DNA of 64,000 nt, from contig CALXHF010000009.1 in NCBI GenBank assembly GCA_944388035.1, forward strand, positions 1,147 through 65,146, in the 5' to 3' direction. This stretch comes from an uncultured Clostridia bacterium (GTDB taxonomy: Bacteria > Bacillota > Clostridia > TANB77 > CAG-508). The notes under the pieces were generated by a model, which was given only the letters and a program-made list of their open reading frames with translations, was not told the DNA's origin and searched no databases. Positions within the stretch are counted from its first letter, which is position 1, and each line of letters begins with the position of its first letter. This document shows positions 484-1,668 of the stretch, in pieces. The position numbers and the translations under genes are program-made.

Positions 484-1668
484 ATGAAGAAAAGAGAAGT
501 ATGTTGGTTAATTACAACAAGGTGTAATCAAAAATGTGCTTATTGTCATGGATTTAGAAATATTCCAGAATTAAGTCTTGAAGAAAACAAAGAGGTTCTT
601 ATGAAATTAATAAGAGCAGGTGTGAATTATATAACTTTTTCTGGAGGAGAAGCATTGTTATATCCTAATATTATAGAATTGTTAAAAATAGCAAAACAAA
701 ACGGAGTAAAAAGTAAATTAATAACAAATGGTTCTATAATTGCAAATAATGAAAAAATGAGAGAAGCAATAAATTATTTAGATACTATAACATTATCATT
801 AGATACAATTAATGATGATATAAATGAACAAATGGGTAGAGGTAAAAATCATTTTGCAGAAATAAAAAAAGTATTAGATATTTTAAACGGTAAAAATATT
901 AGAATCAAAATAAATACTGTTGTAACAAAATTAAATATTGATTACATAGAAGAACTTGGAGAATTTTTAAATTCTAATTATAAAATAAATGAATGGAGAA
1001 TATTTAGATTCGCTCCATTAAGAGAATTAGCAAAAGAAAATGAAGAAAAATTTGAAATCACAGATGAACAATTTGAGTCTACTAAAGAAATATTCCAAAA
1101 AAATTATAAAAACATAGGTAAAGTAAATTACAGAGATAATGATGATATGGAAAGCAAATATAATCTTGTTACTGCAAATGGAAATATTGTTAGAACAATA
1201 AATAAGAAAGATGTAGTAATAGGAAATGCTTTAAATCAAGGAGTTAATGAAATTGTAAAAATAATGAATGAAGATTATAATAGAAATTATTTAAAAGACA
1301 AAATTAAAGTGTTAGTTTCTTATGATAATGATAATATATTAAATAGATTGGTTAATACAATAAATAATATAGATTATGCAGAGGTTGTTGCAACTGCTAA
1401 AAATTCTGAAGAAACATTTAATAAGATAATGGATAAAAGACCAGATATGGTATTTTCAAAGTTTGACATTAATGTAATAAAAAAATCAGAAGAAAAATTA
1501 GAACAAAATGCTCCTGTTTTCAATTTAATAGAAAACGATATAGGGTTAAAAGATTTTCAAAATGCAATGAGAGTTAGTGGAAATAAAATTAATGCATTAG
1601 TAAGAGAACCATTTGAAGAAAGAGTAGAGGGAATATTAAAAGACTATAAAGAGTATATTTATAAATAA
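484..1668 (+). CDS. Viperin-like radical SAM enzyme fused to a C-terminal pseudo-receiver domain
   Basis: CxxxCxxC (CNQKCAYC), FSGGE, TNG, SLDTINDDINEQMGRG, KINTVV, WRIFRF, FEITDEQF and NDDMESKY align by eye with viperin/RSAD2 motifs. The C-terminal KIKVLVSYD...RPDMVF segment resembles a receiver domain. Confidence 0.7.
   Translation: MKKREVCWLITTRCNQKCAYCHGFRNIPELSLEENKEVLMKLIRAGVNYITFSGGEALLYPNIIELLKIAKQNGVKSKLITNGSIIANNEKMREAINYLDTITLSLDTINDDINEQMGRGKNHFAEIKKVLDILNGKNIRIKINTVVTKLNIDYIEELGEFLNSNYKINEWRIFRFAPLRELAKENEEKFEITDEQFESTKEIFQKNYKNIGKVNYRDNDDMESKYNLVTANGNIVRTINKKDVVIGNALNQGVNEIVKIMNEDYNRNYLKDKIKVLVSYDNDNILNRLVNTINNIDYAEVVATAKNSEETFNKIMDKRPDMVFSKFDINVIKKSEEKLEQNAPVFNLIENDIGLKDFQNAMRVSGNKINALVREPFEERVEGILKDYKEYIYK

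Follow-up and report, generated by a model that had tools for sequence, protein, structure and literature searches.

We report that a gene in an uncultured Clostridia bacterium encodes a radical S-adenosylmethionine (SAM) domain with the fold of viperin, joined to a receiver domain that has no phosphoacceptor aspartate. The gene lies near the start of a 64,000-nucleotide (nt) stretch of contig CALXHF010000009.1 (hereafter the window; G+C about 25%), DNA that occurs in chicken-gut metagenomes. Few immune enzymes are common to animals, archaea and bacteria; viperins are among them, and the nucleotide analogues they produce are natural antivirals. Taking the evidence together, we consider it reasonably probable that the protein is a viperin-fold radical SAM enzyme of a distinct clade carrying an Asp-less receiver, that it forms the core of a mobile Clostridia module which has decayed in the window, and that it modifies nucleotides. 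In the mechanism we propose, the enzyme would reductively cleave SAM via a [4Fe-4S] site, the resulting 5'-deoxyadenosyl radical would take a hydrogen atom from a substrate of nucleotide type, and the product would be a modified nucleotide that might, as in viperin, be dehydrated; the pseudo-receiver, blind to phosphorylation, would act as a protein-protein or allosteric module coupling the enzyme to the element's regulators.

The viperin-fold domain and its position relative to viperins

An original prediction, made from the letters of the sequence, had placed a viperin-like enzyme fused to a pseudo-receiver at positions 484-1668; the open reading frame (ORF) is real and its coordinates are exact (394 amino acids (aa), plus strand). 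The N-terminal domain matched Pfam Radical_SAM over residues 9-162 (E 2.5e-26) and the PADLOC prokaryotic viperin (pVip) models over residues 6-266 (E 3e-48, 162.6 bits, profile positions 5-256 of 262). The best NCBIfam match was viperin_w_prok (NF038283; E 3e-43, 147.8 bits, profile positions 3-274 of 281), and the second-best family reached only 94 bits and covered the radical SAM core alone. Viperins are the nearest solved structures by sequence. A full-length AlphaFold2 (AF2) model built from 60 family sequences had a mean predicted local distance difference test score (pLDDT) of 87.8, and when it was compared with the Protein Data Bank (PDB) by Foldseek, a comparison with viperins that the original prediction had proposed, ranks 1-18 were all viperins or viperin-like enzymes (TM-score normalised to the target 0.75-0.82), with SkfB, BlsE, PFL-AE and MoaA ranking below them. 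Near-full-length hidden Markov model (HMM) coverage and Foldseek both show that the viperin C-terminal extension beyond the radical SAM core is present. MoaA/SPASM-type enzymes share the core with the window protein (its first ~180 aa), but they match at 74-94 bits over that core only and lack the viperin-type C-terminal part, and SPASM or auxiliary cluster motifs are absent from the window protein.

The viperin motif order read by the original prediction was borne out, as every listed motif was found and paired with its mouse viperin counterpart in HMMER alignments (window/mouse: CNQKCAYC/CNYKCGFC, FSGGE/FSGGE, SLD..N..MGRG/SCD..N..IGRG, KINTV/KINSV, WRIF/WKVF and FEITDEQF/FLISNEEF; N..M...Y also pairs). 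The CxxxCxxC site (C14/C18/C21, nt 523-546) and the G54-G55-E56 SAM motif (nt 643-651) are present in the window protein and invariant in its family. Judged from these alignments, the agreement with mouse viperin far exceeds chance, and the label 'viperin-like' is well founded for the N-terminal domain in both sequence and fold. With viperin/pVip enzymes (RSAD2, the SAM-dependent nucleotide dehydratases; NF038283, TIGR04278) the protein shares the partial-barrel radical SAM fold with the viperin-specific C-terminal extension, the motif order, CxxxCxxC, GGE, KINxV, W-[KR] and the Tyr302 equivalent, and its relatives share genetic linkage to nucleoside monophosphate (NMP) or nucleoside kinases.

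We then asked where the domain falls relative to validated viperins. For calibration of viperin scores, the N-terminal domain was searched against 1.84 billion representative proteins, yielding 112 matches at E<=1e-30. The curated cut-off of NF038283, an equivalog model of 281 profile positions, is 180 bits; against the 147.8 bits of the window protein, eight relatives of the C-W type scored 132-168 bits and two representatives of the N-W-H type scored 255 and 297 bits. PADLOC pVip scores split likewise (139-171 bits for window-type sequences versus 250-290 bits for canonical ones). These types refer to the site just before the cluster motif, where viperins carry N-Φ-H and the window protein reads C7-W8-L9. 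In a signature table of the closest 150 representatives, with positions aligned to mouse viperin residues, nearly all read C-W-x at this site and few read N-W-H, whereas five plasmid genes annotated by NCBI as 'viperin family antiviral radical SAM protein' and two representatives passing the cut-off all read N-[WFY]-H. Cys7 is family-invariant and occupies the viperin Asn77 position, and we speculate that it alters the chemistry; this extra cysteine and a 'PLRE' motif further distinguish the protein from viperins. At the positions of mouse K120, K220, R245, K247 and Y302, canonical anchors read K/R, K/R, R/K, K and Y, and the window protein reads Y49, K142, E170, R172 and Y226 (3/5 kept). In the mouse viperin-cytidine triphosphate structure, K120, K220, R245 and K247 reportedly bind the nucleotide phosphates; two of these four conserved basic residues are gone in the window protein, with Tyr49 in place of K120 and Glu170 in place of R245.

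In a neighbour-joining tree (139 sequences, 270 columns, MoaA root, 100 bootstraps), the query clade, made up of receiver-fused forms and their closest 256-aa relatives, excluded canonical viperins in 92/100 bootstraps. The wider C-W group was not monophyletic under the MoaA root, with canonical viperins inside its most recent common ancestor (MRCA) in 97/100 replicates, and we dropped the description 'sister clade of viperins' on that ground. The deeper branching order of the tree lacks resolution. Thus, of what the original prediction expected from HMMs and phylogeny, the best match to viperin models stood and membership in the validated viperins did not: by score, signature and tree, the window protein is placed outside the curated and validated family, and its group is placed as a distinct, Clostridia-centred clade of the viperin-like radiation.

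Because the score lies under the cut-off, N-Φ-H is absent and the clade falls outside canonical viperins, synthesis of 3'-deoxy-3',4'-didehydro-nucleoside triphosphates (ddhNTPs) cannot be assumed. The absence of N-Φ-H and of the K120 and R245 equivalents likewise leaves nucleoside triphosphate binding and viperin-type dehydration uncertain. These data bear on the alternative that the protein is a genuine prokaryotic viperin making ddhNTP chain terminators against phage, with the receiver-like domain as a regulatory or phage-sensing switch. Its HMM and fold matches are best to viperins, and it retains Tyr226 (the Tyr302 equivalent) and K142/N144 of KINTV, yet canonical representatives score about 100 bits higher, and the altered pocket residues and the tree set the protein apart from them. 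Together with the genomic context described below, this makes the alternative unlikely in our view, although the protein may have an antiviral role.

A receiver without its phosphoacceptor

The original prediction described the C-terminal ~125 aa as a Spo0A-like receiver with a lost phosphoacceptor and a degraded acidic pair. A separate AF2 model of residues 268-394 reached a pLDDT of 89.2 and a predicted template modelling score of 0.84, and five β-α units in both this and the full-length model complete a (βα)5 CheY-like fold. Foldseek searches with the isolated domain returned receivers exclusively, with the best E-values for DesR and AraT and the top TM-scores for Spo0A receivers (0.78-0.79, root-mean-square deviation about 2 Å). 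A pseudo-receiver profile built from 22 family C-terminal domains and searched against the PDB matched AraT and CheB (2e-8), VraR (1e-6), Spo0A (2e-6) and then CheY. Resemblance to Spo0A therefore holds for the fold, where Spo0A receivers give the best TM-scores, and not for the sequence, which is not Spo0A-specific, as AraT, CheB and VraR match equally well or better. Unlike the Spo0A receiver, moreover, the domain lacks a phosphoacceptor and is not joined to Spo0A_C within its own protein; in the ancestral module described below, it is the neighbouring gene that bears a Spo0A_C domain.

The loss of the phosphoacceptor was confirmed. The motif PDMVFSK (nt 1441-1461) puts Lys326 at the Asp57 position, the acidic pair reads Y-D, and Ile and Glu occupy the Thr87 and Lys109 positions. 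The Pfam Response_reg match is sub-threshold in the window protein (14.1 bits versus the PF00072 gathering score of 30.2 bits), and many relatives at 45-49% identity carry recorded PF00072 matches flagged as weak or faint. Across the family Asp12 is replaced by H or Y, Asp13 by N or D, Thr87 by I and Lys109 by E; at the Asp57 position the window's clade has K and other members have E, S, N or G, and no family member in the alignments has an Asp there. The window's clade is also 6 residues short in the β3-α3 loop. Measured against relatives whose proteins are 98% and 88% identical, the ratio of nonsynonymous to synonymous substitution rates (dN/dS) for the C-terminal domain was 0.10-0.15 (about 0.11), equal to that of the enzyme domain and indicative of purifying selection. 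Degradation of the receiver by local decay was considered and rejected, given the family-wide Asp-less state and this dN/dS. We also rejected a recent origin as a paralog of the receiver in the neighbouring Spo0A-like regulator, with which the domain aligns at 17-25 bits and an hhalign probability of 61%.

These features identify the C-terminal domain as a conserved pseudo-receiver, predicted to be unable to be phosphorylated. Asp-less receivers are expected to act via protein contacts or ligand binding rather than by phosphorylation, and the domain is probably a phosphorylation-independent regulatory or docking module. Like the aspartate-less receivers of atypical response regulators, it has a CheY-like (βα)5 fold without the acceptor Asp or the Mg-binding acidic pair. 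It differs from them in lying C-terminal to a radical SAM enzyme, or being encoded just after one, in having no DNA-binding output domain, and in the change of all five hallmark positions (H/Y, N/D, K/E/S, I, E). A sensing switch of the kind required by a phage-regulated viperin could not work by phosphotransfer through such a domain.

A mobile module of gut Clostridia and its nucleotide-linked relatives

A protein search returned 171 relatives; the identical protein is on 80 contigs, which come from many samples. Relatives turned up in at least 215 species-level genomes when a single genome of each species was scanned, and the fusion is a trait of this family rather than of the window copy alone. 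The hosts are almost all uncultured gut Clostridia of humans, mice, rabbits, ruminants and birds. We clustered the ORFs around each of the best 80 loci among relatives, and counts below are given out of these 80. The receiver unit is fused to the radical SAM domain in 69/80 loci and is a separate adjacent gene of 127-142 aa in 8, standing right after a 256-aa radical SAM gene (L052, L075), beyond an intervening PfkB kinase gene (L091, L092) or after a radical SAM-PfkB fusion (L089, L093, L102). Because it is fused in some loci and a separate neighbouring gene in others, the pseudo-receiver is an independent module travelling with the enzyme. Remoter relatives have other partners fused to the radical SAM domain, a full LysR regulator in P0170 and a methyltransferase in P0111. 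A phage collection held distant matches to the radical SAM core only and no fusion, and none of the plasmid records carried the fusion.

The combination of a viperin-like radical SAM enzyme with a pseudo-receiver appears undescribed, as the original prediction had supposed. In the literature available we found no match for viperin with a receiver domain and no paper that connects prokaryotic viperin-type enzymes with a receiver, LysR or CYTH partner, and none of the database sources searched names these proteins. The broadest viperin survey reports fusions for eukaryotic viperins only (kinase, E3 ligase, cyclase/triphosphatase including COG1437, and reverse transcriptase). These eukaryotic proteins likewise show viperin-type enzymes gaining partner domains by fusion, and COG1437, which is of the CYTH type, parallels the CYTH enzyme described next; they differ in being canonical viperins, in having no receiver or LysR fusion, and in that the CYTH enzyme of the Clostridia module is a neighbouring gene.

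The genes around the fusion form a conserved set. A LysR regulator lies directly upstream of the radical SAM gene in 73/80 loci, and upstream of LysR, in 58/80, is a gene of ~196 aa that has no Pfam match and that a family profile searched against the PDB identifies as a CYTH/triphosphate-tunnel enzyme (PH1819 1e-8, class IV adenylate cyclases 1e-4, and the Saci_0718 triphosphate tunnel metalloenzyme). On the other side, about 50 nt downstream and convergent, 76/80 loci carry a gene of ~241 aa encoding a Spo0A-like protein, in which an atypical receiver with its acceptor Asp kept is followed by a Spo0A_C-type DNA-binding domain. The pseudo-receiver and this gene co-occur in 74/76 loci, and complete loci without the pseudo-receiver are also without the Spo0A-like gene. 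Further downstream are a sigma-like gene, a long-form MazF and one or two large serine recombinases (in 41/80 loci within the stretch examined), and the backbone genes of the element include a PcfJ-like protein, ABC/FtsX transporter genes and a transglycosylase. The ancestral module is thus CYTH, LysR, radical SAM/pseudo-receiver and Spo0A-like regulator, carried as cargo of serine-recombinase elements.

The operons of stand-alone relatives also encode Tmk-like NMP kinases, PfkB, NUDIX, methyltransferases and U32-family proteins, and annotated cyanobacterial viperins adjoin deoxynucleoside kinases. The linkage to kinases, NUDIX and CYTH, together with the eukaryotic triphosphatase and cyclase fusions, supports a nucleotide-type substrate, and the most likely activity, inferred from this linkage, is SAM-radical modification of a nucleotide. 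As a large uncharacterised neighbour of the viperins with altered active-site residues, recurrently linked to NMP/PfkB kinases, NUDIX and CYTH and with the enzyme tied to regulators by fusion or adjacency, the clade is a likely source of new nucleotide chemistry.

The context also bears on the antiviral alternative. The kinase linkage of relatives resembles that of 'pVips associated with kinases', and the gene sits on mobile elements with toxin-antitoxin genes, RhuM/PDC-S05 and other variable cargo. However, its conserved partners are not defence genes but transcription factors together with a CYTH enzyme, and PADLOC matched nothing upstream except, weakly, a kinase. The original prediction of a regulated or phage-sensing viperin lacks support: LysR, the Spo0A-like regulator and CYTH are not known phage sensors. 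In the window these partners are lost.

A different possible role is that of a signalling circuit in which the enzyme makes and CYTH processes a nucleotide effector sensed by LysR, and which, with the Spo0A-like and sigma-like factors, controls excision and transfer or host sporulation, the pseudo-receiver tying the enzyme in. The adjacency of LysR and its fusion to the radical SAM domain in P0170, the frequency of the Spo0A-like regulator and its co-occurrence with the pseudo-receiver, the sigma-like gene and recombinases downstream, and the closeness of Spo0A receivers in TM-score among solved receivers are all consistent with it. Nevertheless, the argument is entirely one of gene context, LysR genes adjoin many kinds of operon, and the window has lost all regulators and keeps the enzyme gene alone; in this specific form we think the proposal improbable. 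That the CYTH/LysR/radical SAM-pseudo-receiver/Spo0A-like module is, more broadly, an unrecognised nucleotide-based circuit of gut Clostridia mobile elements is a tentative and rather doubtful suggestion. If true, a viperin-type enzyme with Cys for the viperin Asn and an altered phosphate pocket would make a new modified nucleotide, whose production or sensing would be wired directly to transcription factors via an Asp-less receiver, either as a regulated antiviral effector system or as a signal for element transfer or host sporulation. Were the pseudo-receiver to couple the enzyme to the Spo0A-like regulator, a radical SAM enzyme would, unusually, be linked directly to two-component-type regulation on gut mobile elements.

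A third possibility is a tailoring enzyme of a pathway for a nucleoside-derived secondary metabolite with an antibiotic-like product, of which one gene is left in the window. The multi-enzyme operons of stand-alone relatives (methyltransferases, U32, a second radical SAM enzyme, a DAHP/NeuB-like synthase, HAD/MBL hydrolases, PfkB) would suit such a pathway, but fused-form loci have CYTH and regulators instead of these enzymes, and no transporter or resistance gene is consistently linked, so that we regard this as very unlikely.

Individual loci among the relatives show several further arrangements. In P0096-type loci (L019-L023), a serine-recombinase element of ~10 kb interrupts a ZIP transporter gene and carries NUDIX, LysR, a Tmk-like kinase, a 703-aa U32-family protein, a methyltransferase, a viperin-like radical SAM enzyme and a PfkB kinase, a cargo that looks like a self-contained nucleotide-modification operon. 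The methyltransferase-radical SAM fusion of P0111 (L108-L110) belongs to a long operon whose other genes encode LysR, a HAD hydrolase, a Tmk-like kinase, an MBL hydrolase (Apyc1-like match), GreA-like, U32, a DAHP/NeuB-like synthase, a second radical SAM enzyme and another methyltransferase. On an E. coli IncF plasmid (NZ_CP045714.1, 21.2-22.8 kb; L117), a radical SAM gene of 288 aa whose signature reads D-F-R is in an operon with a deoxynucleoside kinase and NudI, with a RelE/Phd pair and a recombinase alongside; this gene, too, is viperin-like but non-canonical and has kinase and NUDIX partners. P0051-type elements have right flanks that differ between contigs, and in this one subfamily (L014-L018) a set resembling a diversity-generating retroelement (bAvd, reverse transcriptase, MutS_I-like protein) lies ~1-5 kb upstream of the module, along with a true stand-alone receiver with intact Asp residues.

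The decayed element in the window

The mobile-element setting claimed by the original prediction is well supported in the window by a serine recombinase, a MazF remnant, a group II intron and a block (1-4402) that is 94-98% identical between strains inside flanks of only 75-82% identity (Table 1). The most informative comparison is with L025, an intron-free locus whose protein is 98% identical and which keeps the order LysR, radical SAM-receiver, intact Spo0A-like gene, sigma-like gene, 200-aa MazF and recombinase. L025 positions 9914-11377 correspond to window 397-1862 at 97.4% identity, and L025 15817-16294 to window 1861-2338. Homology begins at window 397, right after the intron, whose end lies ~79 nt upstream of the radical SAM start codon, and the stretch 397-483 is homologous to the LysR-radical SAM intergenic region of L025. 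At the other end, the deletion left little of the Spo0A-like gene, cut off the N-terminus of MazF and eliminated the sigma-like gene along with several small genes. The MazF remnant covers only positions 53-108 of the Pfam PemK_toxin profile and matches residues 42-203 of the PemK protein of L014 (57% identity, E 3e-54). The window holds no LysR or CYTH remnant, and LysR is also absent from the 10 kb upstream of L001, a related decayed locus. The radical SAM-receiver gene is nucleotide-identical in nine other decayed loci (L001-L008, L024), which indicates that the decay is recent. As read from the sequence, the window gene is an intact orphan behind its native promoter-like site, in a module that decayed recently, and because only the orphaned enzyme gene survives, its significance for the window itself is smaller.

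Table 1. Features of the element in the window (positions of the window; strand in the third column)
Feature	Position	Strand	Details
Viperin-like radical SAM/pseudo-receiver ORF	484..1668	+	Intact, 394 aa, ATG start
Viperin-fold radical SAM domain, aa 1-266	484..1281	+	Pfam, pVip HMMs, Foldseek
Aspartate-less receiver (pseudo-receiver), aa 272-394	1297..1665	+	AF2, PDB profile search, Foldseek
Group II intron 3' end	1..405	+	Pfam GIIM E 3.6e-7; Rfam RF00029 45.3 bits
Maturase (GIIM) ORF tail	46-303	+	Pfam; part of the intron
Intron domain V/VI	320-396	+	RF00029, 45.3 bits versus gathering score of 40 bits
Promoter-like site TAGACA-17-TATAAT	422..450	+	11/12 consensus matches, best in region; consensus match only
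Spo0A-like gene remnant, last ~48 codons	1713..1859	-	tblastn with the 245-aa protein of L014, residues 194-241, 41% identity, E 3e-5
Junction of ~4.4 kb deletion relative to L025	1861..1862	.	Homology breaks between L025 blocks
Truncated long-form MazF/PemK toxin gene	1866..2348	+	~41 first codons gone; in-frame stops upstream
Large serine recombinase (Resolvase + Recombinase + Zn ribbon + DUF4368)	2622..4184	+	Pfam; mobility gene of the element
Mn-catalase/CotJC-like C-terminal fragment, frameshifted	4172..4402	+	Right end of the conserved block; broken ORF

Several points weigh against reading this gene as the nucleotide-modifying core of a regulated module. The substrate and dehydration chemistry of the enzyme are uncertain, as the N-Φ-H, K120 and R245 equivalents are missing; the pseudo-receiver reaches no more than the low alignment score given above with the neighbouring regulator's receiver, and its docking on the Spo0A-like regulator is a guess. 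The window copy, moreover, has lost every conserved partner, the gene is nucleotide-identical in every decayed locus, so that any continued function after the decay is conjectural, and the evidence of transcription consists of two exact 151-nt RNA-seq contigs at a depth of ~2.

Some of these observations speak for the alternative that the window copy is a non-functional relic, silent without its LysR activator and left behind by recent decay of the module. The CYTH, LysR, Spo0A-like and sigma-like genes are lost and MazF is truncated, the nucleotide identity of all decayed loci implies that there was no time for selection, and RNA support is negligible. On the other hand, the ORF is intact and the native promoter-like site is kept, the decayed arrangement is widespread, as shown by the number of contigs and samples that carry the identical protein, and relic status would bear on the local copy only, not on the function of the family. 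We give this explanation an appreciable but minority chance. For the family as a whole, the viperin-fold enzyme of a distinct clade with its conserved pseudo-receiver remains the reading we prefer.

The intron, recombinase and right end of the element vary among related loci. Related strains carry an intact or split reverse transcriptase (RT), with an intact RT of 462-466 aa upstream in L001, L005 and L024. In metatranscriptome contigs the domain V region of the intron has very high depth, because many introns share domain V. A 33-aa ORF (window 2423-2524) precedes the recombinase, and an ORF of equal size, called by size and position, is found there in related elements including L019-L023. 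The Mn-catalase fragment is intact in L001, L008 and L024 (78 aa, Pfam Mn_catalase), and a Mn-catalase/CotJC-like fragment follows the recombinase in remote elements too (L024 13678-13914; L072/L073 ~17681-18034); this fragment may mark the gene that the element prefers as its target, or it may be a replacement 3' end that the element carries. Cargo beyond 4402 varies, with RhuM in the window and, elsewhere, Fic with an N6 methyltransferase or a DNA-alkylation repair gene. The RhuM-family gene of the window (4568-5587) matches Pfam at E 8e-102 and the PADLOC candidate defence family PDC-S05 at E 2e-133.

Outside the window, in the 10 kb upstream of the gene in L001-L006, is a conserved set comprising a VWA protein, a 931-aa metallophosphatase, an ATLF-like protein and a 651-aa Ser/Thr kinase, which recalls VWA-phosphatase-kinase triads; among these upstream neighbours (VWA, Metallophos, ATLF, Pkinase), PADLOC gave no match except for the weak kinase. 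The only RNA genes detected in the window are tRNA-Thr(GGT) (26565-26640, minus strand) and tRNA-Glu(CTC) (38062-38136, plus strand), and the remainder has the look of ordinary chromosome, with GH18, sigma factor, FtsZ, ThrRS and other genes.

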